Source: Campylobacteraceae bacterium (GTDB lineage: Bacteria; Campylobacterota; Campylobacteria; Campylobacterales; BB28). Taken from it: a DNA stretch of 64,000 nucleotides. The first letter of the stretch is position 1; each line of letters opens with the position of its first letter. The position numbers were made by a program, and so were the translations under genes. A model generated the notes under the pieces. That model was given only the letters and a program-made list of their open reading frames with translations, ran no database searches and was not told where the DNA came from. This document shows, one piece after another, positions 5,140 to 18,053 of the stretch. The stretch spans positions 7,284 through 71,283 of the forward strand of contig JADGEE010000001.1 of NCBI GenBank assembly GCA_016744535.1. Reading direction: 5' to 3'.

Positions 5140-6479
5140 TTAAATCTTCCATTGAGAGTAAAAGATGCTTTTATACTCAACTCTTTATAATCGTGTGTCA
5201 TATCAACTCTTATTTTTTTACCCATATCTAAAGTAACTTTTTTAAAATCTTTTAAAAATTTATTTAAATCTATTAAATCTTCAAACTTTTTTTCAAACTC
5301 TAAACTCAAAATATTATCTTTTTCACTCCATTTAAAATTCTCAAATTCAATCTCTAGAGTATTTATCTTTTGACTTATTAAATTTATACTATTTAATAAA
5401 TTAGTATTTGAATTATTTTTTATTAATTTTAAAAAGTTAGAGATAAATCGCTCATCTTTAGGACTACCTATATTTATTTTTGAAAAGTCTCGTAATAATT
5501 TACTTTTTAAATTTGAGTAATTATCTTCTAAGTCAAAATATCTATTAGCTTTATTAAATATTTCATAACCTACTAGTGTTGATAAAAGTACTAAAGCAAA
5601 TATATAAATATTTAAAAGTTGTAAAAACTGCTGTTTTGACTTAAATTTAATAGGAATAAAATTTAAATCATCATCAATTAAAAGTGAACCAAATTCAATT
5701 AAATATCTATTAAAACTTTCAAAGTCAATATTTTTAAATATTAATTTTGGCATTAATTTTAAAACTTCTACTTTAGAGTTGTTCTCAATAATAGTTAAAA
5801 GTTCAATATTATCCGTAAATTCTCCATTAATAGTTACTAAATCAAAGTTTACTCTTAATTGCTGTTTTATATATAGAATATTTTTTATAGCTTCATCTTT
5901 TAGTGTTTCAAAATCAAGTGTTTTCTCTTTTAAATTTATAACTCTCGAGAATAGTATACTTTCAAAATTTCCAGCTATTATAATTATCTCATTTAAATTC
6001 GAATACAAAGAGATAAAACTCTTATCTTTAAAGAAATATCTATTAATCGAATATAACGCATAAATATCTAAAGTAACACACTTTATACTTTTTGGAGTTG
6101 CAATAGAGTAAAAATCTTTATAATCACTCTCATAGACTCCAATTATCTCATAACGAGTTGAGTTTTTAGTTGTTTCATTTTCATAATAGTTATAAATTAT
6201 TTTATTTTTATCTAAATGAAACTCTTTTTTTAACTTCGCATCAATCATAAATTTTATAGTAGAATCACTTTTAATTACTTTTGGAATATCAATATTAGTT
6301 TTAATTGTTTTTGTACCAAATAGACTAAAATATAAATTTCGTCTATTTTTTATATATTTTTTTACCTCATTTAATTCCTCAAATGATACTTCTGCTTTTA
6401 TTGATAATTTCTTGAGACTTTTTGAAATTTTTAAAACATTAAATTTTCCATCTCTTAATCTAATTAAATTTACAATCAT
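5136..6479 (-). CDS. MshI-like assembly protein (PilM-like cytoplasmic part + TM + PilN-like part)
   Basis: 447 aa with one internal TM helix (LLNIYIFALVLLSTLVGYEIF) about two thirds along. It is the first gene of the operon upstream of the secretin. Confidence 0.4.
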   Translation of the reverse strand: MIVNLIRLRDGKFNVLKISKSLKKLSIKAEVSFEELNEVKKYIKNRRNLYFSLFGTKTIKTNIDIPKVIKSDSTIKFMIDAKLKKEFHLDKNKIIYNYYENETTKNSTRYEIIGVYESDYKDFYSIATPKSIKCVTLDIYALYSINRYFFKDKSFISLYSNLNEIIIIAGNFESILFSRVINLKEKTLDFETLKDEAIKNILYIKQQLRVNFDLVTINGEFTDNIELLTIIENNSKVEVLKLMPKLIFKNIDFESFNRYLIEFGSLLIDDDLNFIPIKFKSKQQFLQLLNIYIFALVLLSTLVGYEIFNKANRYFDLEDNYSNLKSKLLRDFSKINIGSPKDERFISNFLKLIKNNSNTNLLNSINLISQKINTLEIEFENFKWSEKDNILSLEFEKKFEDLIDLNKFLKDFKKVTLDMGKKIRVDMTHDYKELSIKASFTLNGRFK

Positions 6480-6604
6480 TTTATCACTTCTATTATTAAA
6501 AATAGTAACTACTATATTTTATAGTACAAAAAAATAATATTTAAACAGATTATAATTTTTTTTGGCTAATATATAAGTAAAAAATTTTTAATAAGGAGAT
6601 AGAG

Positions 6605-6691
6605 ATGGAAATTGTTGCAGGATTTTATGTAATAGTTGCAATTGTAACTATACCTGTGTGGTTATATTTTCAAAAAAACCCAGCTCATTAG
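6605..6691 (+). CDS. 28-aa hydrophobic peptide (MEIVAGFYVIVAIVTIPVWLYFQKNPAH)
   Basis: Strong SD AAGGAG sits 6 nt upstream of the ATG. Single TM-like helix. Followed by the hairpin TCTCCC-tcta-GGGAGA at 6699-6714. It is below the ORF-track cutoff. Confidence 0.3.
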   Translation: MEIVAGFYVIVAIVTIPVWLYFQKNPAH

Positions 6692-6813
6692 TTAAGAGTC
6701 TCCCTCTAGGGAGAGAGAGTTACTTTAACCTAAATTATCTACTTGATTTAAATCAATGAAATTATTATAATTCTTATCTATAATTCTTAATTAAAAGAAT
6801 ATGAGGGAAAATT

Positions 6814-7113
6814 ATGAAAAAAATGGAAATTAATATAGATGGTACAACACTTCCATTTTATGAGACGGAGTTAAATGGAGTCAAATATTATGAGTTTGAT
6901 GCTAGTGAAGTTGGATGTCCTGAACCTATGATAAATGCAATGGCTGGACTTAAATTTATTTCCAAAAACAAAAAAAAATCAAAATTAATTATGATAAATT
7001 CACACGAACCAAAGGGACTTTATAAAAAAATTAAAGATAAATTTACTTGGAGTGTAGAGAATTTAAATAAAGAAAAAGTGAAAATAATTTTTGCTTCAAT
7101 TGATGGTAAATAA
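6814..7113 (+). CDS. DUF2249 / TusA-like small protein
   Basis: GCPEPMINAMAGL (CPxP-type motif) plus a later HEPKGLY block. SD GAGGGA lies upstream. Confidence 0.55.
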   Translation: MKKMEINIDGTTLPFYETELNGVKYYEFDASEVGCPEPMINAMAGLKFISKNKKKSKLIMINSHEPKGLYKKIKDKFTWSVENLNKEKVKIIFASIDGK

Positions 7114-7116
7114 AAA

Positions 7117-7458
7117 GTGAAAATAATAAATTTTTTATTTATTTTACTTATTAAACTTTATCAAAAAGTATTAAAAATTACTCCTAATAGTTGTAGATAT
7201 TACCCATCTTGTTCAGACTATGCAAAAATGGAATTTGAAAATAGTAATTTTTTTAAAGCTTTAATTAGCTCAACCCTTAGAATATTAAGATGTAATCAAC
7301 TTTTTGACGGTGGATTTGATTATCCTATCGTAAAAAAGAGTTTCCATTTTAACAAACTTCAAAAAAGAGAATTTAAAAAATTAAATATTAAATATTGGTT
7401 TATTCAAAAAGAGTTAAATAACTTTTATGTAATTAAAAACATCAAATTTAAAACTTAA
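7117..7458 (+). CDS. yidD: membrane protein insertion efficiency factor YidD
   Basis: The YQKVL...CRYYPSCSDYA motif is diagnostic. GTG start. Confidence 0.85.
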   Translation: MKIINFLFILLIKLYQKVLKITPNSCRYYPSCSDYAKMEFENSNFFKALISSTLRILRCNQLFDGGFDYPIVKKSFHFNKLQKREFKKLNIKYWFIQKELNNFYVIKNIKFKT

Positions 7459-7520
7459 CTTTTAAATAAAATTTGCTAAAATTATTAAAATTAATTATAG
7501 ACAAAAATGAGGAGTCTAAA

Positions 7521-8339
7521 ATGAAAAGCATAGTTGAAGAGTTATGGCAAGTTAGGGATACTTTAACACCAGATAGTCTAAGAGAGCCTGAAATTAAAAA
7601 AGCTGTTTTAGATACAATTGATGATTTAGATAATGGAAAAATTAGAGCAGCCCATAAAGAGGATAAAAAGTGGATTGTGAATGATTGGGTAAAAAAGATA
7701 ATTTTAATTTATGTAAAAGTTGCTAGAAAATATGTAATGAATGAGGGTAGTTATAAATATTTCGATAAAATTCCTTTAAAATTTGATGGCTGGGATCAAC
7801 TTAAATTTGAGAGTGCAAATTTAAGAATCAGTGTTGGCTCAATTGTTAGAAAAGGTGCTTTTATCTCAAATGGCTCTATTTTAAAGCCAACTTTTGTTGG
7901 AATTGGTGTGCATATTGGAGAGAAAACTTTTATAGATACATACTCAAATATTGGAGCTTGTGCGCAAATTGGTGATAATTGCCATATAGGCTCACATACA
8001 GCAATAGCTGGTAGTTTAGAACCAATAAATTCAATTCCAACAATTATTGAAGATAATTGCCATATTGGGGCAAGTTCTACGATAGGCAATGGAGTTATAA
8101 TTAGAGAAGGAAGTATTATAGGAAGTGGAGTACATATAGACAGTACTACAAAAATTTATGATAAAGAGACAGAAAATATTTTTTATGGTGAAGTTCCTCC
8201 ATATAGTGTAATAGTTTCAGGTGTACTTCCAAGTGCAGATGGTTCTGTATTTACTTATGCAGCTATTATTGTAAATAGAACAGATGAAAATGTAAGAGCA
8301 AAACTTTCAGTAGATAGAATATTAAAAGGCACTAAATGA
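7521..8339 (+). CDS. dapD: 2,3,4,5-tetrahydropyridine-2,6-dicarboxylate N-succinyltransferase
   Basis: Collinear with E. coli DapD (YFDKIPLKF, PTIIEDNCHIGA hexapeptide repeats, VIVSGVLPSADG). The ATG at 7521 has a GAGGAG SD, which I prefer over the TTG at 7473. Confidence 0.9.
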   Translation: MKSIVEELWQVRDTLTPDSLREPEIKKAVLDTIDDLDNGKIRAAHKEDKKWIVNDWVKKIILIYVKVARKYVMNEGSYKYFDKIPLKFDGWDQLKFESANLRISVGSIVRKGAFISNGSILKPTFVGIGVHIGEKTFIDTYSNIGACAQIGDNCHIGSHTAIAGSLEPINSIPTIIEDNCHIGASSTIGNGVIIREGSIIGSGVHIDSTTKIYDKETENIFYGEVPPYSVIVSGVLPSADGSVFTYAAIIVNRTDENVRAKLSVDRILKGTK

Positions 8340-9181
8340 AAATCAAAAGAGTAAAATTATATTTATTAACTCTTATCTCTCCATTTATTTTAAATGCAGG
8401 AATGTTAAATGGAGTCTCTGTTGTTGTAGATAATGAAGCAATTACAATGTATGAGATATATAAATTATCAAAAAAAGCTAATTTAGCTTATGAAGATAGT
8501 ATTGAAAAATTAATAGAGTTAAAATTACGAGAGGTTGAAGTTAAAAAAAGAAATATAGTAGTTGATAAATTTGAAATTGAACAAGAACTTGAGAATATTG
8601 CTCAAAAAAGTGGTTTTAGTCTATCTCAATTTAAAGAAGTAGTCGGATTAAGAGGTATTAGTTGGAGTGCTTATAAGAAAAAAGTTAAACAAAAAATCGA
8701 ACAAGAAAAGTTAGATAAGAGAGTTTCAGTAGAGAAATTAAAAAATATTAGTGAAGAGAAATTAAAAGAGTATTATGAAAAGAATATAGATGAGTTTACA
8801 ATTGCAAAAAAATTTGAAGTTATAAAATACTCTTCAAGCTCAAAAGATAATTTAGAAAAATCTGTTTTAAATCCAATGTTATCTCTTCCTAATGTAATAA
8901 AAGAGGCTGAAGTATTAGATGCTAAGAGAATTAATCCAAAATTACTTTTTGTATTAAATGATACGGAGGAATCATCTTTTAGTCCAATTTTAACAACATC
9001 AGAAGCTTATATAACATTTTTTGTGATAAAAAAGATGAATATTGAATATTTAAGTTTTAGCAAAGTAAAAGATGTAATTTTCTCTAAACTTATAAAAGAG
9101 AGTCAAAAGAGAGTTATAAAAGAGTATTTTGAAAAATTAAAAGCAAAAGCTGATATTAAAGTTATAAGACTTCCATCTTAA
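8336..9181 (+). CDS. periplasmic SurA-like chaperone / PPIase-family protein
   Basis: Signal peptide. SurA N-terminal-like block VVVDNEAITMYEI. ATGA overlap with dapD. Confidence 0.55.
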   Translation: MKIKRVKLYLLTLISPFILNAGMLNGVSVVVDNEAITMYEIYKLSKKANLAYEDSIEKLIELKLREVEVKKRNIVVDKFEIEQELENIAQKSGFSLSQFKEVVGLRGISWSAYKKKVKQKIEQEKLDKRVSVEKLKNISEEKLKEYYEKNIDEFTIAKKFEVIKYSSSSKDNLEKSVLNPMLSLPNVIKEAEVLDAKRINPKLLFVLNDTEESSFSPILTTSEAYITFFVIKKMNIEYLSFSKVKDVIFSKLIKESQKRVIKEYFEKLKAKADIKVIRLPS

Positions 9182-9183
9182 TT

Positions 9184-10485
9184 ATGAACTTTATTTTAGA
9201 AGATAGTATTATTTTTGGAACTATATTACTATCATTATTTTTTATTTCAGGCGGAACTCTCTTTTGGATGATAAAATTAAGTAGAGCAAAGAAAGAGAGT
9301 GAAGTTGCAAAAAAACAGATTGAATTAATCTTTTCAAAAATTTTAATCCCATTTTTAATTACATCTAAAAAGAGAAGAGAGATAGTTTTTGCTAATGAGA
9401 ATGCACTAAAACAGTATGAGATAACAGAGGATAAGTTACTTGGTGGTTCAATTGATATGTTTTACACAGATGAGAATCAAAGATATAAAATTTTAGAAGT
9501 AATGAAAAAATATGGAGTCGTTAAAAATCTTGAAATGAGATACAAAACATATAAAGGTAACTACTTTGACGCTCTTCTATCTTTAATTGATATTATATAT
9601 AAAGGTGAAGAGTGTTATTTGGGAATTATTACAGATATAACTGAACAGAGACAAAGAGAAGAACAGATTAAAGATCTTCATCGTAAAGTTACAGATTCAA
9701 TTAAGTATGCTTCATTAATTCAACACTCATTAATTCCTAATAATAATATTTTTGAAAAATATGTAGATGACTATTTTGTACTTTGGAAACCAAGAGATAT
9801 AGTTGGTGGAGATATATATCTTTTAGAAGAGTTAAGAAATGATGATGAAGTATTAATTATGCTAATTGATTGTGCTGGTCATGGTGTTCCAGGAGCATTT
9901 GTAGCAATGTTAGTAAAAGCGATAGAGAGACAAATTGTTGGTGAAATTTTAAATAGTAATGTTGATGTCTCTCCAGCTAAAATATTAACTTTTTTTAATA
10001 AAAATATGAAAACTATTTTAAGGCAAAATAGTGATAATTTTATTTCAAATGCTGGTTCAAACGCTGGATTTGATGGGGGAATACTCTATTACAATAAAAA
10101 AGATAAAATAATTAAATATGCTGGAGCGAAAGTACCACTTTATCTAATAAAAAATGGTAAATTAAAAGTAATAAAAGCAGATAGACACTCAATCGGTTAT
10201 AAACGCTCAAAAGCAAATTTTGAATTTAAAGATAATATAATAAAAATTGACAGTGATATTAGACTCTATATCACAACAGATGGTTATTTAGACCAAAGTG
10301 GAGAAGATAGATTACCTTTTGGTAAAAAAAGATTTCAAGAATTAATTATTGAATCTAATATGGAGAGTTTTGAAGAGCAAAAAATAATTTTATTAGATAA
10401 ATTTTTAGAATATAAAGGTAAAAATAGAGTAAATGATGATGTTACAGTTATTGGAATGAAATTTATACAAGAGGATATTAATTAA
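9184..10485 (+). CDS. membrane-anchored PAS + PP2C/SpoIIE-family Ser/Thr phosphatase (SiaA-like)
   Basis: One TM helix and a PAS-like segment ending GIITDITEQR. PP2C block GGDIY...LIDCAGHGVPGAF...ITTDGYLDQ...NDDVTVIG. Confidence 0.85.
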   Translation: MNFILEDSIIFGTILLSLFFISGGTLFWMIKLSRAKKESEVAKKQIELIFSKILIPFLITSKKRREIVFANENALKQYEITEDKLLGGSIDMFYTDENQRYKILEVMKKYGVVKNLEMRYKTYKGNYFDALLSLIDIIYKGEECYLGIITDITEQRQREEQIKDLHRKVTDSIKYASLIQHSLIPNNNIFEKYVDDYFVLWKPRDIVGGDIYLLEELRNDDEVLIMLIDCAGHGVPGAFVAMLVKAIERQIVGEILNSNVDVSPAKILTFFNKNMKTILRQNSDNFISNAGSNAGFDGGILYYNKKDKIIKYAGAKVPLYLIKNGKLKVIKADRHSIGYKRSKANFEFKDNIIKIDSDIRLYITTDGYLDQSGEDRLPFGKKRFQELIIESNMESFEEQKIILLDKFLEYKGKNRVNDDVTVIGMKFIQEDIN

Positions 10486-13044
10486 GTGTTAGATAATGAT
10501 AATAATATAGAGATAAAAGATTATATTTTAGTAGTTGAAGATAGTAAAACTTATCTTCAAGTAATTAAACAATTTATTAAAAATTATACAAATTATGAAG
10601 TAATGGTAGCTCAAAATTATGGAGAAACTAAAAAGATATTAGAATCAAAAGAGTATAACTTCTTTGCATCATTAACTGATTTACACCTACCTGATAGTAT
10701 GGATGGAAACATAGTAGATTTACTTCTCTCATTTAAAATACCAACTATTGTTTTAACATCTTCTACTGATGAGAATGTCCGAGAAAAACTTACTAAAAAA
10801 GCTATTGTTGATTATATTATTAAATCTTCATTAGCAGATATTAAAAGTGCTATTAAGCTTTTAAATCAACTTAAAAAAAATGAAAATATTAAAATATTAG
10901 TAGTTGATGATTCCAAAACATTTAGATCATATATTGGAAATTTTTTAAAACTTCACTACTTTAATATTTTTAAAGCATCAGATGGAATTGAGGCTTTAAA
11001 AGTTATTGAAGAGGAGAAAGATATCTCTATGGTTTTAACAGATTATCATATGCCAAATATGGACGGTTTTGAATTAACTACCGAAATTAGAAAAAAATAC
11101 TCTAATCAAGAGATGGCAATTATAGTATTATCTTCTGATACAAATAATTATACAACTTCAAGATTTTTAAAAAATGGAGCAAATGATTATCTGTTAAAAT
11201 CATTTTCAAGAGATGAATTTTTTAGTAGAGTTTATTTAAATATTTATAATTTAAGTTTAATAAAAGAGGTCACAAAAGAGCAAAATTTAGTAAATGAGTA
11301 TAAACGGGCAGTTGATGGAAGTTCTATTGTTTCAAAAACAGATATCAATGGAATTATTACTTATGTAAATGATGAGTTTTGTAAAATTTCAGGCTATGAT
11401 AGAGAAGAGTTAATAGGAAAATCTCATAATATTATAAGACATTTAGATACTCCAAAAGAGATTTTTAAAGATTTATGGGATACTATTTTAGCAAAAAAAT
11501 CTTGGAAAGGTGTTATTATAAATAGAGCTAAAAATGGAACTGCATATTGGGTTGATAGCTTTATTACTCCTATATTAGACGAAAACAAAAATATAATTTC
11601 AATTATGGCAATTAGAAGTGATATAACTAAACTTCAAGAGAGAACTGATAAATTAAAAAAAACTAATAAACAGATCAGAGATTCAATAGAGTATGCTTCA
11701 CTAATCCAAGGGGCTTTAATCCCAGATAAAAATGTATTTGCAAAATATACAGATGATTATTTTGCCATTTGGAAACCAAGAGATGTAGTTGGAGGAGATA
11801 TTTATCTTTTAGAAGAGTTACGAAATGAGAATGAATTTTTATTAATGGTGATAGATTGTGCCGGTCACGGAGTTCCAGGGGCATTTGTAACAATGCTAAC
11901 AAAAGCAATTGAGAGACAAATTATCGGTAGAATTGTAAATAGTGATGAAATTGTAAGTCCAGCTAAAATTTTAACTATTTTTAATAAAAGTATGAAACAT
12001 TTATTAAAACAAGAAAAAGATGAAACAATATCAAATGCTGGATTTGATGGAGGTATATTATATTATAATAAAAAAGATAATATAATTAAATACGCAGGAG
12101 CAAAAACACCACTTTATATTATTAGAGGTGATAAGTTAGAGATGATTAAAAGTGATAGACAATCTATCGGTTATAAACGCTCAAAGCCAAGTTTTGAATT
12201 TAAAGACCATATAATAGAGTTAAATGAAGATACACAAGTTTATATAACAACTGATGGTTATTTAGATCAAAGTGGTGGAGAAGAGGGCTTTCCTTTTGGT
12301 AAAAAAGAGTTTCAAAAATTAATTTTTAAAAATAGAGAAAAGAGTTTTAAAGATCAAGAAGATATATTAATAGGCAATTTTGAATCTTACAAAGGAGATA
12401 AAATACCAAATGATGATGTTACAGTTATCGGAATGAAATTTATAGATAATAGAGTAAAGGAGGGAGATATGTTAAAACAGAAGCTTAATACAATTAATAA
12501 ATGTGAACAAGAACTTAAAATTGAATTTAAAGTTGATGATGAAATTTTATTTGAATTTAATGGCATTATAACACAATCAAAAGTTGTAGAGGTAGCTAAG
12601 GGTGTTGAAAAAAAATTAATTGAAGAGAATGTCGAAACTTCAAAAATTCGTAATATTTTTGAGGTAATTGTTGAAATTATGCAAAATATACTTAGTTACT
12701 CTTGTGATAGTATAGATAAAGGGAATAATACTTATGAGAGTAAAGGTAAAATTATTATAACTCATAATACTAAAACAGAAGAGTATTTAATATCTAGTTG
12801 TAACTTGATAGAGGCTAGTAAAAAAGAGAAAATTATTAATAATATAGATCAACTTACCCCTTTAAATAAAGATGAGTTAAAAAAGTTATATAAAGAGACA
12901 AGAAGAAGTAGAAAAACAGTGCATAACAGAGGTGCTGGGCTTGGTTTTATTGAAATGGCTAGAAAGTCAATAAAACCATTAGAGGTTACTTTTAGTGAAC
13001 TTAATACTAAAGAAGTTCTTTTTACACTAAAAGTTACTATATAA
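10486..13044 (+). CDS. fusion protein: REC-REC-PAS-PP2C phosphatase-SiaB-like kinase domain
   Basis: Two receiver domains (LTDLHLPD and VLTDYHMPNMDG). PAS segment (NGIITYVNDEF...SGY). PP2C block (DCAGHGVPGAF). The C-terminal about 190 aa carry VEIMQNIL...GAGLGFIEMARKS, typical of SiaB/DUF6272 kinases. GTG start 1 nt after the previous stop. Confidence 0.8.
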   Translation: MLDNDNNIEIKDYILVVEDSKTYLQVIKQFIKNYTNYEVMVAQNYGETKKILESKEYNFFASLTDLHLPDSMDGNIVDLLLSFKIPTIVLTSSTDENVREKLTKKAIVDYIIKSSLADIKSAIKLLNQLKKNENIKILVVDDSKTFRSYIGNFLKLHYFNIFKASDGIEALKVIEEEKDISMVLTDYHMPNMDGFELTTEIRKKYSNQEMAIIVLSSDTNNYTTSRFLKNGANDYLLKSFSRDEFFSRVYLNIYNLSLIKEVTKEQNLVNEYKRAVDGSSIVSKTDINGIITYVNDEFCKISGYDREELIGKSHNIIRHLDTPKEIFKDLWDTILAKKSWKGVIINRAKNGTAYWVDSFITPILDENKNIISIMAIRSDITKLQERTDKLKKTNKQIRDSIEYASLIQGALIPDKNVFAKYTDDYFAIWKPRDVVGGDIYLLEELRNENEFLLMVIDCAGHGVPGAFVTMLTKAIERQIIGRIVNSDEIVSPAKILTIFNKSMKHLLKQEKDETISNAGFDGGILYYNKKDNIIKYAGAKTPLYIIRGDKLEMIKSDRQSIGYKRSKPSFEFKDHIIELNEDTQVYITTDGYLDQSGGEEGFPFGKKEFQKLIFKNREKSFKDQEDILIGNFESYKGDKIPNDDVTVIGMKFIDNRVKEGDMLKQKLNTINKCEQELKIEFKVDDEILFEFNGIITQSKVVEVAKGVEKKLIEENVETSKIRNIFEVIVEIMQNILSYSCDSIDKGNNTYESKGKIIITHNTKTEEYLISSCNLIEASKKEKIINNIDQLTPLNKDELKKLYKETRRSRKTVHNRGAGLGFIEMARKSIKPLEVTFSELNTKEVLFTLKVTI

Positions 13045-13062
13045 AATTAAGGAGAGTAATAG

Positions 13063-13440
13063 ATGGAAAATTTAAATATAGAGAAAACAGAATATACACC
13101 AAAGATAGTTTTAAATGCAGAAGAGGGATTAATAGAATTTAAAGGAGACTCTTTTCCAGAGAATACTTATGATTTTTATAAGCCTATAATGGAATGGTTA
13201 AAAGAGTATTTTGATTCTAATAAGAAAGATAAAACGACCATTAATATGGAAATAAATTACTTTAATTCTAGTAGTTCTCAACTCTTTTTTGATTTGTTTG
13301 ATTTATTTGAAGAGGTAAGTGAAGATAATAATTTACAAATAAATTGGATATATGATGAAAAAAATGATAGTGCAGAGGAAGCTGGTGAAGATTTTGTAGA
13401 GGAGTTTGAAACTCTTAATATTAATATGATTATAAAATAG
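13063..13440 (+). CDS. SiaC-family regulatory phosphoprotein (DUF1987)
   Basis: Collinear with P. aeruginosa SiaC as I recall it: YTPKI..., GDSFPEN (SiaC has GDSYPEN), YFNSSSS (SiaC has YLNTSS), acidic C-terminus. SD AAGGAG. Confidence 0.75.
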   Translation: MENLNIEKTEYTPKIVLNAEEGLIEFKGDSFPENTYDFYKPIMEWLKEYFDSNKKDKTTINMEINYFNSSSSQLFFDLFDLFEEVSEDNNLQINWIYDEKNDSAEEAGEDFVEEFETLNINMIIK

Positions 13441-13456
13441 ATAATTAGGATAAAAG

Positions 13457-14323
13457 ATGAGTCTTACAGAAGATAAATTATTAGAACAGTTAGAGAGTTT
13501 TGTAAATAATGATATAGCACACTTTAAAGAATTAACTCAAAAAGTAATCAGAAACTATACTAAAAAATCTAAAAGATTAGATAAAATTGTAAAACAGAGT
13601 GATACTCAACAAAAACAGTTAATTACTCTACATAAAGAGTTAGATGAGTATAAAAATCATCTTGAAGATAAAGTTGAAGATAGCTTAAAAGAGATAAAAG
13701 ATTTAAATAGAGAAATTGAAGATACTCAAAGAGAAGTTATATTCACTATGGGAGCAATTGGAGAAAGCCGTTCAAAAGAGACAGGAAACCATGTAAAAAG
13801 AGTTGCCGAGTATTCACATCTATTTGCTGTAAAATATGGGATGAGTGAAGAAGAGTGTGAGCTTTTAAAACAGTGTTCACCAATGCACGATATTGGAAAA
13901 GTGGCAATTCCTGATGCTATTTTAAATAAACCTGGAAGATTTACTGATGAAGAGTTTAAAGCTATGCAAAAACACGCTGAACTTGGATATGAAATGCTTA
14001 AACACTCAAATAGAACTATTATGTGGGCAGCTTCAATTGTAGCTTATGAGCATCACGAAAAATATAATGGTAAAGGTTACCCTAGAGGAATTGCAGGAGA
14101 AGATATTCATATCTATGGACGAATTACAGCAATTGCAGATGTTTTTGACGCATTAGGAAGTGATAGAGTTTATAAAAAAGGTTGGAGTGATGATAAAATT
14201 TTTAATTTAATTAAAGAGGAGAGAGGAGAGCATTTTGACCCAAAATTAGTAGATATTTTTTTTGAACATTTAAATGATTTTTTAAAAATTAGAGATAGTT
14301 ATAAGGATAATTTTGAAGAGTAA
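13457..14323 (+). CDS. HD-GYP domain cyclic-di-GMP phosphodiesterase with N-terminal coiled-coil module
   Basis: HD motif MHDIGKVAIPD. GYP motif HHEKYNGKGYPRG. The N-terminal about 90 aa are helical. Confidence 0.9.
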   Translation: MSLTEDKLLEQLESFVNNDIAHFKELTQKVIRNYTKKSKRLDKIVKQSDTQQKQLITLHKELDEYKNHLEDKVEDSLKEIKDLNREIEDTQREVIFTMGAIGESRSKETGNHVKRVAEYSHLFAVKYGMSEEECELLKQCSPMHDIGKVAIPDAILNKPGRFTDEEFKAMQKHAELGYEMLKHSNRTIMWAASIVAYEHHEKYNGKGYPRGIAGEDIHIYGRITAIADVFDALGSDRVYKKGWSDDKIFNLIKEERGEHFDPKLVDIFFEHLNDFLKIRDSYKDNFEE

Positions 14324-14337
14324 ATCAAAGGTTTAAA

Positions 14338-15282
14338 GTGGAAAATGAAAAAGAACTCATAGAGTATATAGAAGATAACTTAAAATGTGAAGATAAAAAT
14401 TTAAAAAATGCAATTGAGAAATTAATAAAAAATTATAATAAAAAATCTACAAGATTAGACAAAATAGTTAAACAGAGCGATAGACAGCAATCAAGTTTGA
14501 AAACAGCTTATGAAGAACTTAGTGATTATAAAGAAAATCTAGAAATAAAAGTTCAAGATGAGATAAAAAAACGACAAGATAATGAGAGAATGCTTATGCA
14601 ACAGTCTAAAATGGCTGCTATGGGAGAGATGATAGACGCGGTTGCACATCAATGGAAACAACCACTAAATATTATTAGTGTAAGAGTGATGATGTTAGGT
14701 ATGGATTTTGAAGATGGTGAAGTTAATAAAGAGTATATTCAAGAGTTAAATAATCAAGTATCATCTCAAATCAAACATATGGTTAATACACTTGATGAGT
14801 TTAGAGGATTTTTAAGACCAAATAAACAATTAAAAAAGTTTAATATATTAAAAACTGTTAATAGTGTATTACTTTTAACAAAAGATGAATTTATACAAAA
14901 TAAAATATCTACTAAAATATTAGAGAGTAAAGATTTTAATATTTTAGGAGTTGAAAATGAGTTTAAACATATTATTTTAAATATTATAAATAATTCAAAA
15001 GATGCCTTTGTTGAAAAAAATAAAAAAAAGAGAGAGATAACTTTTAAGAGTTATACAACTAATTCTAATTTAATATTAGAGATAGAAGATAATGCAGGTG
15101 GTATCCCTGAAAATATAATAGATGATATATTTAAACCAAATGTAACTACAAAAGCTGATGATAAAGGGACAGGAATAGGACTTTATATGAGTCTGCAAAT
15201 TGCTCAAAAATATAATGGAGATATAATAGTTGAAAATACCGACAAAGGTGCAAAATTTAGTATAAAGTTAAAAAATTTTTAA
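14338..15282 (+). CDS. soluble histidine kinase (coiled-coil module + HisKA + HATPase_c)
   Basis: H-box MGEMIDAVAHQWKQPLN. N box ILNIINNSKDA. G boxes DNAGGI and GTGIGLYMS. No TM segment. GTG start. Confidence 0.85.
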   Translation: MENEKELIEYIEDNLKCEDKNLKNAIEKLIKNYNKKSTRLDKIVKQSDRQQSSLKTAYEELSDYKENLEIKVQDEIKKRQDNERMLMQQSKMAAMGEMIDAVAHQWKQPLNIISVRVMMLGMDFEDGEVNKEYIQELNNQVSSQIKHMVNTLDEFRGFLRPNKQLKKFNILKTVNSVLLLTKDEFIQNKISTKILESKDFNILGVENEFKHIILNIINNSKDAFVEKNKKKREITFKSYTTNSNLILEIEDNAGGIPENIIDDIFKPNVTTKADDKGTGIGLYMSLQIAQKYNGDIIVENTDKGAKFSIKLKNF

Positions 15283-15302: not shown

Positions 15303-15533
15303 ATGAATAGACTCCAATCAAAAATTATAGAAAATATAAATTTACTACCTGATAGTATGCTTCAAGAGGTAGCAGACTTTAGTGAATTTTTAAAATATAA
15401 ATATGAAAAATCAAAAGATACTTTTAAAATAGATAGTGTTTCAAAAGAGGAATTAAATGAAATTGAAAAGGAGTTAAAAGATAAAGAGTGTTTTGAAATT
15501 GTAAAAGATAGTAAAAGAAGTTATCAAATATGA
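15303..15533 (+). CDS. type II antitoxin (DUF2281-like)
   Basis: 76 aa. The N-terminal IENINLLPDSMLQEVADFSEFLKYK resembles DUF2281 antitoxins. ATGA overlap with the toxin gene. Confidence 0.55.
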   Translation: MNRLQSKIIENINLLPDSMLQEVADFSEFLKYKYEKSKDTFKIDSVSKEELNEIEKELKDKECFEIVKDSKRSYQI

Positions 15534-15814
15534 TTTTAGATATAATTTACTCTAAAAAATCACAAAAATTTCTAAATAAAAATTCTCATTTAATTAAAAC
15601 TGATGATGTTGATAAATTAATTATTTTAGCAATTAAAAAAATAAAAAGAATTGAAGATACAAATATAGATTTAAAAGATTTAAAACCAAATAGAAATAAC
15701 TTTTATAGAATTAGAAAAGGAGATATTAGAATTATTTTTTATCTTGATGATAATGGAAAAATTTTAGTAGCAAATGTAAATAAAATAGGATTTAGAGGAG
15801 ATGTTTATAAATAG
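15530..15814 (+). CDS. type II toxin, RelE/ParE superfamily
   Basis: 94 aa. The YRIRKGDIRIIFYLD...ILVANV...RGDVY pattern is typical of RelE/ParE toxins. Confidence 0.7.
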   Translation: MILDIIYSKKSQKFLNKNSHLIKTDDVDKLIILAIKKIKRIEDTNIDLKDLKPNRNNFYRIRKGDIRIIFYLDDNGKILVANVNKIGFRGDVYK

Positions 15815-15887: not shown

Positions 15888-16145
15888 TTAAGTTTTAAAC
15901 TTCAAAAATTCACAAATATCAACTTCTAAAGCCTTTGAAATTTTATAAATATGTTCTAAATTAAAATGTTTATTTTTTTTACAATTTTCTGCATTTGTAT
16001 AAAATGTAACAGAGTTAAAACCAATAGTTAAAGCCAAATCAAGTTGAGTTATATTTTTCTCTTTTCTAATTCTTTTTATGTTTTGTGAAATTTTTTTATG
16101 GAAGATTTCAACTTCTTCTTTTTCTATATTTGAAAATTCATTCAA
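15888..16145 (-). CDS. XRE-family helix-turn-helix transcriptional regulator
   Basis: 85 aa. HTH segment IKRIRKEKNITQLDLALTIGF. Confidence 0.8.
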   Translation of the reverse strand: MNEFSNIEKEEVEIFHKKISQNIKRIRKEKNITQLDLALTIGFNSVTFYTNAENCKKNKHFNLEHIYKISKALEVDICEFLKFKT

Positions 16146-16228: not shown

Positions 16229-16293
16229 TGTGGTAATCTTAAAAACACTAAAATACAATACTTAAATAAATGATAATAAAAGGAGAAAAAGAG

Positions 16294-17547
16294 ATGAAAA
16301 AAGTTTTACTTTCGGCTTTAGCTTGTGGCTATTTAGTTGCAGGAATTAATGATGGTTTAGTTGTACACTATGAATTTGAGGGAAATGCAAATGATAGTAG
16401 TGGAAATGGTAATAATGGAACTGAATATGGTGGAGTTGAATATGTAGATGGAATTATGGGAAAAGCTGGAAGTTTTGATGGGGTAGGTAGTTATATTCGT
16501 AAAAACAATTTTTCTATCAATATAAAAAATGATTTTACAATATCTACATGGATAAATACAAATGAAAATCCTGAATGGTACAATCCAATTTTTTCTATAC
16601 ATTCAGGTGAAGAAGGTTTTGCAAATTATGGGGATAAACATATTAGTCTATGGTTATCTGAACCATTAAGAGTAATTGGCTATCAAACTCCAAAAAATGA
16701 AGATAACGGTAATTATTCTCAAGCTGAAATTTCAAATATTAATACTTGGTATCACATTATTTATACAGAAGTAGATGGTATTCAAAAAATTTATATTAAT
16801 GGAATTGATACAACTTCTAATAAAAAAAGAGATACAGAAAGCGGATTAATTATAAGCAATGGTTTTTTAGAAATAGGAGCACCTAACTTTTGGGGTAATA
16901 ATGGAGGTTGGAGTGAAAATGGAAGAGGAAAAAAATGGAATGGTCTTATTGACGATTTAAGAATCTATGACCGTGCATTAAGTGAAGATGAAATAAAAGA
17001 GCTTTACTACTTAAAAAATTGTGAATGTAATACTCAAACTTCAACTTGTGATGAGAGTAAAATTTATTCTCAAGATGAGTTAGATTCTAAAATTTTAGAA
17101 GCAAAAAATGAGATGAAAAGTTATTGCGAAAATAATCCTAGTGAATGTGGAATTATGCCTGAAACTTCAAACACTACAAACGAAACTACTTCAAATATAG
17201 ACTCTAAAGATGTGAAATTAGAGTTAAGGGCTGGTTGGAATTTAGTCTCAATACCTGGTTATACTCCTTACTCTATTGATAAACTTTTTGCACCTGAAGA
17301 GGAGATGGCTATTGTTTCAAATATAAAAAGTGTTTTTGCTTTTGATGTTGAACAAGGCGGATGGCTTAGTTATGTACCAGGAAATAGAGATAATAGCTTG
17401 ATAAATTTATACCCTGGTCAGGGCTTTTGGGTAAATAATAAATATAATATGAGTTATGAATTTAATGGTGAAGTTCAAATAGAGAGTTTAACTTATAAAG
17501 GCGATGGTTTAGGCAATGTTGATGTGCCTCCAGTTGTTGGAAATTAA
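16294..17547 (+). CDS. secreted LamG/concanavalin-A-like lectin-fold protein with Cys-rich linker and a C-terminal domain shared with the next gene
   Basis: Signal peptide MKKVLLSALACG. LamG-type block WNGLIDDLRIYDRALSEDEIKELY. The ATG at 16294 follows an AAAGGAG SD, which I prefer over 16270. Confidence 0.7.
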   Translation: MKKVLLSALACGYLVAGINDGLVVHYEFEGNANDSSGNGNNGTEYGGVEYVDGIMGKAGSFDGVGSYIRKNNFSINIKNDFTISTWINTNENPEWYNPIFSIHSGEEGFANYGDKHISLWLSEPLRVIGYQTPKNEDNGNYSQAEISNINTWYHIIYTEVDGIQKIYINGIDTTSNKKRDTESGLIISNGFLEIGAPNFWGNNGGWSENGRGKKWNGLIDDLRIYDRALSEDEIKELYYLKNCECNTQTSTCDESKIYSQDELDSKILEAKNEMKSYCENNPSECGIMPETSNTTNETTSNIDSKDVKLELRAGWNLVSIPGYTPYSIDKLFAPEEEMAIVSNIKSVFAFDVEQGGWLSYVPGNRDNSLINLYPGQGFWVNNKYNMSYEFNGEVQIESLTYKGDGLGNVDVPPVVGN

Positions 17548-17570: not shown

Positions 17571-18053
17571 ATGAAAAAAATATTATTAAGTGTAATGCTT
17601 TTAAGTTCAATATTTGCAAGTGATGATTTTCCACCACAGATACCAACTTCAGGTGCAACTCAAACAGAAGGAACAGCTACTGATGGTGTCTCTAAAACTT
17701 CAATTGTAAAAATAGGTATTAAAGTTGGTTGGAATTTAGTTGGCTTACCTGGTTATAGTGCATATACGGTAGAGGATTTATTTGCACCACAAACAGTTGG
17801 AGGAATGGCTATAGTTTCAGGAATTGAGAGCGTTTTTGCTTTTGATGTTGAGTCAGGAAGTTGGAAGACTTATGTACCTGGAAATAGAGATAATTCACTT
17901 ACAAAATTAACACCAGGTCAAGGCTTTTGGATAAAAGCAAAATATAATGGTGGTTACGGATTTAATTCAGGTGTAGAGTTAAAAAATAGAGAGAGTGCTG
18001 AATTTACTGATGGCTCAAATATTGGAACTCTTCCACCAACTATTTGGAAATAA
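17571..18053 (+). CDS. small secreted protein consisting of the shared about 90-aa C-terminal domain
   Basis: Signal peptide. GWNLVGLPGY...VFAFDVESGSWKTYVPGNRDNSL...PGQGFWIK parallels residues in the C-terminus of the LamG protein. Confidence 0.6.
   Translation: MKKILLSVMLLSSIFASDDFPPQIPTSGATQTEGTATDGVSKTSIVKIGIKVGWNLVGLPGYSAYTVEDLFAPQTVGGMAIVSGIESVFAFDVESGSWKTYVPGNRDNSLTKLTPGQGFWIKAKYNGGYGFNSGVELKNRESAEFTDGSNIGTLPPTIWK

Follow-up and report, generated by a model that had tools for sequence, protein, structure and literature searches.

A Sia-type partner switch in a Campylobacteraceae bacterium with an HD-GYP phosphodiesterase and a histidine kinase as candidate SiaC targets

Results

The five-gene cassette

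A stretch of 64,000 nucleotides (nt) of contig JADGEE010000001.1 (assembly GCA_016744535.1, positions 7,284 to 71,283), hereafter the window, comes from a Campylobacteraceae bacterium and carries at 9184-15282 five co-directional plus-strand genes, g1 to g5. They are packed tightly, with spacers of 0, 18, 16 and 14 nt, and we read them as a Sia-type Ser/Thr partner switch whose outputs differ from those in Pseudomonas, a reading to which we assign a probability of about 0.62. In P. aeruginosa SiaABCD, the phosphatase SiaA and the kinase SiaB set the phosphorylation of SiaC, and SiaC activates the diguanylate cyclase SiaD. To our knowledge it has been described in Pseudomonas alone, as a biofilm switch whose single output is the cyclase. 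An earlier sequence-only reading of the window had reported the same five open reading frames (ORFs), and their positions were confirmed. With lengths in amino acids (aa), the cassette reads:

9184-10485, plus strand: g1, membrane-anchored SiaA-like phosphatase, 433 aa (Pfam PAS_9 4e-10, SpoIIE/PP2C 2e-17); transmembrane (TM) segment aa 9-32 (9208-9279), PAS aa 57-154 (9352-9645), PP2C aa 169-429 (9688-10470)
10486-13044, plus strand: g2, REC-REC-PAS-PP2C-SiaB fusion, 852 aa (Pfam Response_reg twice, PAS, SpoIIE, DUF6272 at 1.9e-33); REC1 aa 13-127 (10522-10866, D65), REC2 aa 137-249 (10894-11232, D186), PAS aa 281-382 (11326-11631), PP2C aa 396-655 (11671-12450), SiaB-type kinase aa 684-852 (12535-13041)
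13063-13440, plus strand: g3, SiaC-like phosphoprotein (DUF1987), 125 aa (Pfam SiaC 5e-39); predicted phospho-acceptor S69 (codon 13267-13269) in the loop YFNSSSS
13457-14323, plus strand: g4, stalk-HD-GYP phosphodiesterase, 288 aa (Pfam HD_5 8e-33); helical stalk aa 5-95 (13469-13741), HD-GYP aa 96-288 (13742-14320)
14338-15282, plus strand: g5, stalk-histidine kinase, 314 aa (Pfam HisKA and HATPase_c); helical stalk aa 20-94 (14395-14619), DHp/HisKA aa 95-153 (14620-14796), HATPase aa 205-312 (14950-15273)

Phosphatases, kinase and SiaC-like protein

The description of g1 as a TM-PAS-PP2C protein, given by the sequence-only reading, was borne out by the domain searches: the TM segment is single and N-terminal, and the NCBIfam SiaA model matches the C-terminal 270 aa at 2e-64. 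The PP2C metal ligands of g1 are in place (GGD208-210, DCAGHG229, TDGYLDQ365, NDD417), and the PP2C domain of g2 matches SiaA-PP2C (PDB 6K4E) at 2e-51. Equivalents of SiaA D457, D474, G477, D600, G601 and D653 are found in both g1 and g2 (SiaA PP2C Asp set as listed in PMC7647112), and SiaA R652, a proposed phosphate holder, is Asn in both alike. The two PP2C domains are 64% identical and are therefore recent paralogues.

The C-terminus of the 852-aa protein had been taken for a SiaB-type kinase, and this is what the searches returned: g2 reaches 138.7 bits on NCBIfam SiaB_fam_kinase (cutoff 85) and its last 170 aa span the whole of SiaB (PDB 6KKO_A, 5e-19). It retains E730 (in EIMQN), the equivalent of the predicted catalytic Glu, E61, of SiaB, together with a GAGLG816 box. 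Both g2 receivers keep the acceptor Asp, the Thr/Ser and the Lys (D65/T91/K113 and D186/S216/K238), and the tandem resembles that of CbrR (NCBIfam) at 1.9e-50.

Likewise, the 125-aa g3 is a DUF1987/SiaC protein, as had been proposed, scoring 133 bits against a Pfam cutoff of 24.5. It matches SiaC in the PDB (6KKO_C/6K4F) at 1.5e-16, and the acceptor alignment suggested with the sequence-only reading sets S69 opposite SiaC T68, with the N-S-S triad retained. All motifs quoted there (VEIMQNIL, GAGLGFIEMARKS, GDSFPEN, YFNSSSS) are present. Conserved interface residues of g3 are Y66, N68, S69, S70, D80, D110 and E114, and its closest relatives are from metagenome-assembled genomes (MAGs) of Arcobacteraceae. 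All of the 27 SiaCs compared (SiaC numbering) have Y65, N67 and either Ser or Thr at position 68, and 26 have S69; D79 itself is found in 24, and the positions of D79, E110 and D114 are acidic in 25, 25 and 27 members. D79K together with E110N occurs in two orphan Bacteroidales SiaCs that have no stalk gene nearby. By sequence, two SiaA-type PP2Cs and one SiaB-type kinase are positioned to set the phosphorylation of g3 Ser69.

The cassette falls below the NCBIfam equivalog cutoffs throughout. The PP2C proteins g1 and g2 score 218 and 246 bits on SiaA (cutoff 700) because the match covers the PP2C part only, g2 scores 98.7 on SiaB (cutoff 225) and g3 scores 99.5 on SiaC (cutoff 150). Moreover, Pfam finds no GGDEF domain in g1-g5, the outputs being HD-GYP and HisKA/HATPase proteins. 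With sub-cutoff scores and no SiaD/GGDEF output, the cassette is therefore a SiaABCD variant rather than an orthologue.

Output enzymes

Domain and motifs predict g4 to be an HD-GYP phosphodiesterase of cyclic di-GMP (c-di-GMP), in agreement with the sequence-only reading: it matches the HD-GYP enzyme PmGH (PDB 4MCW) at 2e-57 and has the motifs HDIGK144, HHE199 and GKGYP205. It does not belong to the NosR-family response-regulator phosphodiesterases, since it scores 129.6 bits against a cutoff of 400 and has no REC domain. For g5 the earlier call of a soluble histidine kinase also held. Its boxes are intact (H-box HQWKQP104, N NIINN215, G1 DNAGG251, G2 GTGIGL277), the phospho-acceptor is H104 (codon 14647-14649), and the protein has neither a TM segment nor a sensor domain. 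The HAMP domain after which NCBI names the homologues of g5 was rejected, since the Pfam search found none.

A shared stalk with a predicted SiaC-docking motif

The N-termini of g4 and g5 are 42% identical across about 95 aa (E 3e-17), although the catalytic domains behind them have no relationship to each other. No Pfam model covers this stalk region, where only sub-threshold coiled-coil matches appear; the NCBIfam SiaD model matches weakly, in its stalk part only (E 1.2e-3). No homologue of the 103-aa stalk came out of a word-indexed search, and an exhaustive HMMER search was needed. From this search and the window a stalk profile of 30 module copies was built. Among 177,635 PDB sequences it has a single significant match, SiaD (7E6G_A, E 3.2e-4), which covers SiaD residues 62-99 in the published numbering and lies in register with the proximal SiaC-binding motif; a second, weak match falls at the distal motif.

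The SiaD stalk carries two conserved motifs that are bound by SiaC, and the residues involved are R74, K77, V78, R80, I81, S82, D83, R84, Y85, Q86, M88, R90 and D91 (PMC8457831). SiaC T68 enters between the two stalk helices, where it bonds with S82 and Q86, and its phosphorylation stops binding (PMC8457831). The corresponding segments are:

SiaD 74-91: proximal motif, RLEKVARISDRYQQMMRD
13574-13627, plus strand: predicted SiaC-docking motif of g4, aa 40-57, RLDKIVKQSDTQQKQLIT, aligned to SiaD 74-91
14452-14505, plus strand: predicted SiaC-docking motif of g5, aa 39-56, RLDKIVKQSDRQQSSLKT, aligned to the SiaD proximal motif

SiaD R74, K77, V78, R80, S82, D83 and Q86 correspond to R40, K43, I44, K46, S48, D49 and Q52 in g4, and to R39, K42, I43, K45, S47, D48 and Q51 in g5. 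Across 47 distinct stalk motifs the contact positions are near-invariant (R74 in 46, K77 in 42, Val or Ile at 78 in 47, S82 in 44, D83 in 47, Arg or Lys at 84 in 37, Q86 in 41), whereas positions 87-91 vary freely.

The two partners also co-vary at a known contact. SiaC I71 touches SiaD V78 in the crystal (PMC8457831); in our set, Ser at SiaC-71 is paired with Ile at stalk-78 in all 27 distinct pairs, and stalk Val78 is restricted to partners of SiaCs with a bulky residue 71 (P. aeruginosa, L003 and L045). This amounts to only some three independent events, yet they run in the expected direction.

Two stalk subtypes can be told apart, an HK type (RLDKIIKQSDKQQ; HK, histidine kinase) and an HD-GYP type (RQDKIMARSDKRQ..EYD) that is nearer to SiaD. 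The HD-GYP protein of the window bears an HK-type stalk, and the DNA coding for the two stalks (13457-13741 and 14338-14619) is 61% identical, which suggests that the g4 stalk was exchanged with that of g5 or that one arose by duplication of the other.

Stalk geometry

Single-sequence AlphaFold2 (AF2) predictions of g4 and g5 are confident for the stalk helix only, the catalytic domains having low pLDDT. In g4 the model is one uninterrupted helix over aa 5-108 (pLDDT 90-95 for aa 11-80), and in g5 a helix over aa 20-122 that passes through H104. Of 102 distinct stalk-HKs, 98 have the docking Ser exactly 57 residues ahead of the kinase His, as in g5 (Ser47-His104). In stalk-HD-GYPs the docking Ser lies 75, 82, 96 or 103 residues from the HD, each 5 mod 7. 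These fixed spacings mean that the heptad register from docking site to catalytic domain is conserved, which is what would be expected of a stalk that relays a conformational signal.

The stalk family and its gene context

At E<=1e-3 the exhaustive stalk search returned 47 cluster representatives, almost all with the module at the N-terminus, and the domains behind it are HATPase_c (19), HisKA (9), GGDEF (4), SpoIIE (4) and HD_5 (3). For a scan of loci the 30-sequence alignment was too diverse and a 7-sequence alignment was used instead. A scan of genome contigs with SiaC alone gave only 5 loci, and a metagenome scan by the pattern R[LI][DE][KI]I[VIL][KSH][QL]SD alone gave 39, which were annotated by ORF and hidden Markov model (HMM). 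The stalk proteins in these 39 partly near-duplicate loci comprise 28 stalk-HKs, 11 stalk-HD-GYPs, about 7 stalk-PP2Cs and one stalk-GGDEF. SiaB or SiaC is found in 22 of the 39; among the 17 loci that reach 6 kb or more, 13 have at least one of the two. Since SiaC genes are rare (one in the 64 kb window), the association of the stalk with SiaB/SiaC is far above chance, as judged from the rarity of SiaC alone.

Several gene orders recur: sensor-PP2C, stalk-HK, SiaB, SiaC, stalk-HD-GYP (L024, L027, L029, L036); PP2C, SiaB, SiaC, stalk-HD-GYP, stalk-HK (L013, L023); and PP2C, SiaB, SiaC, stalk-HK (L011). The complete genome of the cultured Halarcobacter anaerophilus (CP041070) has, at about 954-971 kb, SiaB-SiaC-stalk-HD-GYP divergent from an adjacent SBP-PAS-PP2C gene and a stalk-HK gene.

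Where a sensor-PAS-PP2C gene is followed by a stalk-HK gene, the two overlap by 4 nt in seven of nine pairs (L053, L054, L007, L018, L024, L027, L029). Such an overlap points to coupled translation, and it suggests that the SiaA-like phosphatase and the stalk kinase are closely linked in function.

Small proteins of about 285-315 aa, in which the docking stalk is combined with a divergent PP2C domain (SGDFY...DGQGHG...DDITII), are encoded in L034, L036 (853-1707, minus strand) and L038-L042. Some of their genes have flanks without SiaB/SiaC and a 217-aa REC protein upstream. The proteins may be a second-tier phosphatase under SiaC control.

The g2-type fusion elsewhere

The sequence-only reading had listed three features as unusual, namely a phosphatase and its antagonistic kinase on one polypeptide under two receivers, an additional stand-alone phosphatase, and an HD-GYP enzyme in place of a cyclase. 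All three are present and unusual relative to P. aeruginosa, but fusion, extra PP2C and HD-GYP output turn up again in many loci of Campylobacterota. Among the 120 best homologues of g2, about 30 combine SpoIIE with DUF6272, and Response_reg is present as well in the majority of these. Such fusion homologues are 36-41% identical to g2 and come from Campylobacterota MAGs, some labelled 'SiaB family protein kinase' by NCBI. Thus the REC-REC-PAS-PP2C-SiaB fusion and the HD-GYP output are recurrent across Campylobacterota and not specific to the window.

The surroundings of the fusion vary. In L045 the order is SiaC, an HK with three tandem stalk motifs, the fusion and a second SiaC. This HK (5897-6991, 364 aa) lies directly 5' of the REC-REC-PAS-PP2C-SiaB gene, and its docking motifs (RFDTVVKQSDKE, RAESVIKQSDRQ, RFNIIIKHSDKQ) recall in their repetition the two motifs of SiaD. 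L050 has the order HK, SiaC, fusion, SiaB, SiaC, stalk-HD-GYP. In L046 and L049 the fusion is followed by SiaC, TolC, an ABC transporter, an HlyD-type adaptor and GerE. The HlyD-type membrane-fusion protein (about 617 aa; L046 13550-15406, L049 13562-15412) has a cytoplasmic N-terminus with the stalk motif RLDRITDQGDRQH, followed by PAS, and SiaC may gate a type-I-secretion system in these organisms. L051 (1-8579) encodes three consecutive PP2C-DUF6272 fusions with REC-PAS, dCache and NIT sensors; the 10 kb contig has no SiaC gene.

Flanking genes

The window DNA is AT-rich (GC about 25%). Directly ahead of the cassette, at 6814-9184, stand four closely packed, co-directional genes of housekeeping type, among them:

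7473-8339, same direction as the cassette: dapD
8336-9181, same direction as the cassette: SurA-like chaperone gene, with its stop 2 nt ahead of g1

A promoter scan gave 70 promoter-like sites where 68 are expected in DNA this AT-rich, and a terminator scan found none after g5. Since neither scan marks a limit of the operon, the cassette may be co-transcribed with the four genes ahead of it.

Just past the cassette, 15530-15814 (plus strand) is a 94-aa ORF ending in FYRIRKGDIRIIFYLDDNGKILVANV; by eye it is RelE/ParE-type toxin-like, and it has no Pfam match at E<0.01. Convergent to it, an 85-aa ORF (15888-16145, minus strand) resembles an XRE-type helix-turn-helix protein. Two predicted secreted proteins encoded side by side at 16270-17547 and 17571-18053 have about 90 aa in common at the C-terminus (GWNLV.(I/L)PGY...SVFAFD...W..YVPGNRDNSL..L.PGQGFW), and the former also contains LIDDLRIYDRALS, which looks LamG/lectin-like by eye.

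Discussion

Four lines of evidence, namely homology, the conservation pattern, co-variation and gene context, suggest that SiaC probably docks on the stalks of both g4 and g5. The sequence-only reading had proposed that the SiaC-like protein targets the HD-GYP enzyme, and its title spoke of a histidine-kinase output; the SiaD-type motif in the N-terminal helix of g4, and the same motif in g5, lend support to both proposals at the level of sequence.

According to the mechanism that we propose, the membrane-bound g1 with its PAS input and the PP2C domain of g2 would dephosphorylate Ser69 of SiaC (g3), and the SiaB domain of g2 would phosphorylate it. Unphosphorylated SiaC would dock on the parallel coiled-coil stalks of the g4 and g5 dimers through the motif R-x-x-K-I-x-K-x-S-D-x-x-Q, as expected from homology to the crystallized SiaC-SiaD complex, and Ser69 phosphorylation would block docking. 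Since the stalk is predicted to run as a single helix into the catalytic domain, binding would then stabilize or re-register the dimer and so alter enzyme activity. Its direction is assumed by analogy with the activation of SiaD. If activation applies here as well, an active phosphatase would lead to more c-di-GMP hydrolysis, a polarity opposite to that in P. aeruginosa, and to a changed kinase output. More speculatively, g5 would phosphorylate both g2 receivers and shift the phosphatase/kinase balance of g2, which would close a feedback loop onto SiaC.

Several observations weigh against this interpretation. The profile match between stalk and SiaD spans 38 aa only, is moderately significant and lies within coiled-coil sequence, and single-sequence phmmer searches of the PDB with g4 or the g5 stalk missed SiaD. 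The hydrophobic SiaD contacts I81, Y85 and M88 are Gln here, Ser/Thr stands in place of the R103-D91 salt bridge, and g4 and g5 have one motif each where SiaD has two. The metagenome loci are partly near-duplicates, so that the counts overstate independence and about ten or more independent cassettes are represented. In addition, several stalk-PP2C and stalk-HK loci have no SiaC in their flanks, and the nearest g5 orthologue, with 71% identity, is encoded among housekeeping genes, where no Sia gene lies closer than 8 kb. Many stalk-HK cassettes have no REC gene, and the partner of the kinase may be elsewhere.

Could the shared N-terminal module be a generic signalling helix, or bind a partner other than SiaC, such as the adjacent PP2C sensor, its likeness to SiaD being coincidental? 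The shortness and modest E-value of the SiaD match speak for this, as do the stalk proteins without SiaC nearby and the 4-nt overlap of PP2C-sensor and stalk-HK genes, which suggests a close relationship of those two products. On the other hand, SiaD is the sole significant match in the PDB and is in register on the very residues that touch SiaC, the pattern of conserved and variable positions fits the crystal contacts, SiaC-71 co-varies with stalk-78, and SiaB or SiaC accompanies the motif in most of the long motif-found loci (13 of 17); we therefore regard a generic helix as quite improbable. Equally improbable, in our judgement, is the wiring favored by the sequence-only reading, in which g5 is an input only that phosphorylates the g2 receivers, its N-terminal helix merely dimerizes, and SiaC acts on the HD-GYP enzyme alone. 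The sole REC domains of the window are indeed in g2, sensor-less HKs with an N-terminal coiled coil exist, and the RsbK/RsbY pair discussed below is a precedent for an HK that feeds a REC-PP2C protein. However, the SiaC-contact residues of g4 and SiaD are also in the g5 stalk, and the motif recurs in about 100 stalk-HKs at its fixed 57 residues from the His, which is unexpected for a mere dimerization helix. Moreover, lacking a sensor domain of its own, g5 would have nothing to sense as a pure input.

The feedback step is harder to judge. That g5 transfers phosphate to g2 and so feeds back onto SiaC is speculative, and on balance we doubt it. In its favor, g2 bears the only REC domains of the 64 kb window, even at E<=10; HK genes adjoin REC-bearing fusions in L045, L048 and L050, the stalk-HK of L045 lying 9 nt upstream of its REC-REC fusion; and single REC genes stand beside stalk-HKs in L017, L019, L028, L030 and L036. 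The lack of any other REC in the window, the order in L045 and the single REC genes beside stalk-HKs also argue against an arrangement without a loop, in which SiaC docks on g5, g5 signals to an unlinked response regulator and another kinase feeds the g2 receivers. That arrangement is nevertheless a serious contender, although we would stake less than even money on it: stalk-HKs occur without a REC gene in L011-13, L024, L027, L029, L033, L035 and L053, no HK lies close to the fusions of L046, L049 and L051, and the dual REC of g2 resembles that of CbrR, for which we know of no cognate kinase. Within g2 itself, only one of the two antagonistic activities might be real, the other domain being a regulatory or SiaC-tethering pseudo-enzyme. 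The stand-alone PP2C of g1 could supply the phosphatase activity, and a PP2C-SiaB fusion occurs together with a separate SiaB in L013 and L050; but g2 retains its PP2C metal ligands, the equivalent of SiaB E61 and the GAGLG box, and the change of R652 to Asn is shared by g1 and g2 and so makes no distinction between them. We consider a pseudo-enzyme in g2 unlikely.

The cassette shares with SiaABCD (P. aeruginosa PA0172-PA0169; PDB 6K4E, 6KKO, 6K4F, 7E6G) the SiaA-type PP2C, the SiaB-type kinase and the DUF1987 phosphoprotein, an acceptor in an N-(T/S)-S-S loop, and an output with an N-terminal helical stalk that bears an R..K[VI]...SD..Q docking motif. It departs from SiaABCD in its outputs, an HD-GYP phosphodiesterase and an HK instead of a GGDEF cyclase, and in the single docking motif per stalk. 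Further differences are the fusion of the kinase to a second PP2C under REC-REC-PAS, a Ser acceptor where Pseudomonas has Thr, PAS in place of the SiaA HAMP, and scores below the equivalog cutoffs for SiaA, SiaB and SiaC.

Individual steps have parallels elsewhere. M. tuberculosis Rv1364c carries PAS, PP2C and an antagonistic GHKL-type Ser kinase on a single partner-switch polypeptide. It is thus a precedent for a phosphatase and a kinase on one chain, as in g2; unlike g2 it includes the STAS substrate as a further domain, lacks receivers and targets sigma-F, and its kinase is RsbW-like and not of the SiaB/DUF6272 type. The Rv1364c PP2C is a structural neighbour of SiaA-PP2C (PMC7647112). In the RsbK-RsbY-RsbV/W system of Bacillus cereus an HK feeds a REC-PP2C phosphatase that controls a partner-switch phosphoprotein, a precedent for the proposed step from HK to REC-PP2C upstream of the switch (PMC4574943). 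The B. cereus output, however, is sigma-B via an anti-sigma factor, the switch protein is STAS and not DUF1987, the switch protein does not itself act on the kinase, and no fusion joins the PP2C to the antagonistic kinase. HsbR-HsbA-HsbD of P. aeruginosa and BgrSTUWV-BgrR of S. meliloti are partner switches that act on diguanylate cyclases (cited in PMC8457831). They resemble the scheme proposed here in having a phospho-switch protein that binds to a c-di-GMP enzyme and regulates it, and differ from it in using STAS proteins and GGDEF cyclases. We know of no description of a shared portable docking helix in either. CbrR of Campylobacter jejuni (NCBIfam NF050064) matches the REC-REC part of g2 over positions 2-255 (1.9e-50) and ends in GGDEF, whereas g2 ends in PAS-PP2C-SiaB.

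A full-text literature search, incomplete in coverage, returned no account of kinases or HD-GYP enzymes as partners in SiaC-type docking, nor of Sia-like systems outside Pseudomonas. The authors of PMC8457831 suggest that DUF1987 proteins may modulate 'adjacent proteins', a suggestion that goes no further. What our analysis would add is the portable SiaC-docking stalk; the components belong to known Sia families.

In conclusion, we give even odds to the broader proposal that the stalk motif of SiaD acts as a portable adaptor on which SiaC docks, and that SiaC here controls c-di-GMP breakdown together with a two-component kinase, possibly in a closed feedback. Such an adaptor would serve at least five kinds of output, namely HK (the commonest), HD-GYP, PP2C, GGDEF and a type-I-secretion membrane-fusion protein. 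If this is true, a short helical motif predicts SiaC targets from sequence alone, the SiaC mechanism is generalized, and hundreds of Campylobacterota histidine kinases now named 'HAMP domain-containing' or 'C4-dicarboxylate-specific' would be reassigned. The input of these kinases would then be a phosphoprotein docked on the stalk in place of a sensor domain, a direct bridge at the protein level from Ser/Thr partner switching to two-component signalling, and the constant 57 residues between Ser and His offer a defined system for studying how a coiled coil passes a signal to the DHp domain. The presence of a cassette in the cultured Halarcobacter anaerophilus opens these predictions to experiment. 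The same switch logic could then raise or lower c-di-GMP, depending on which enzyme bears the stalk.

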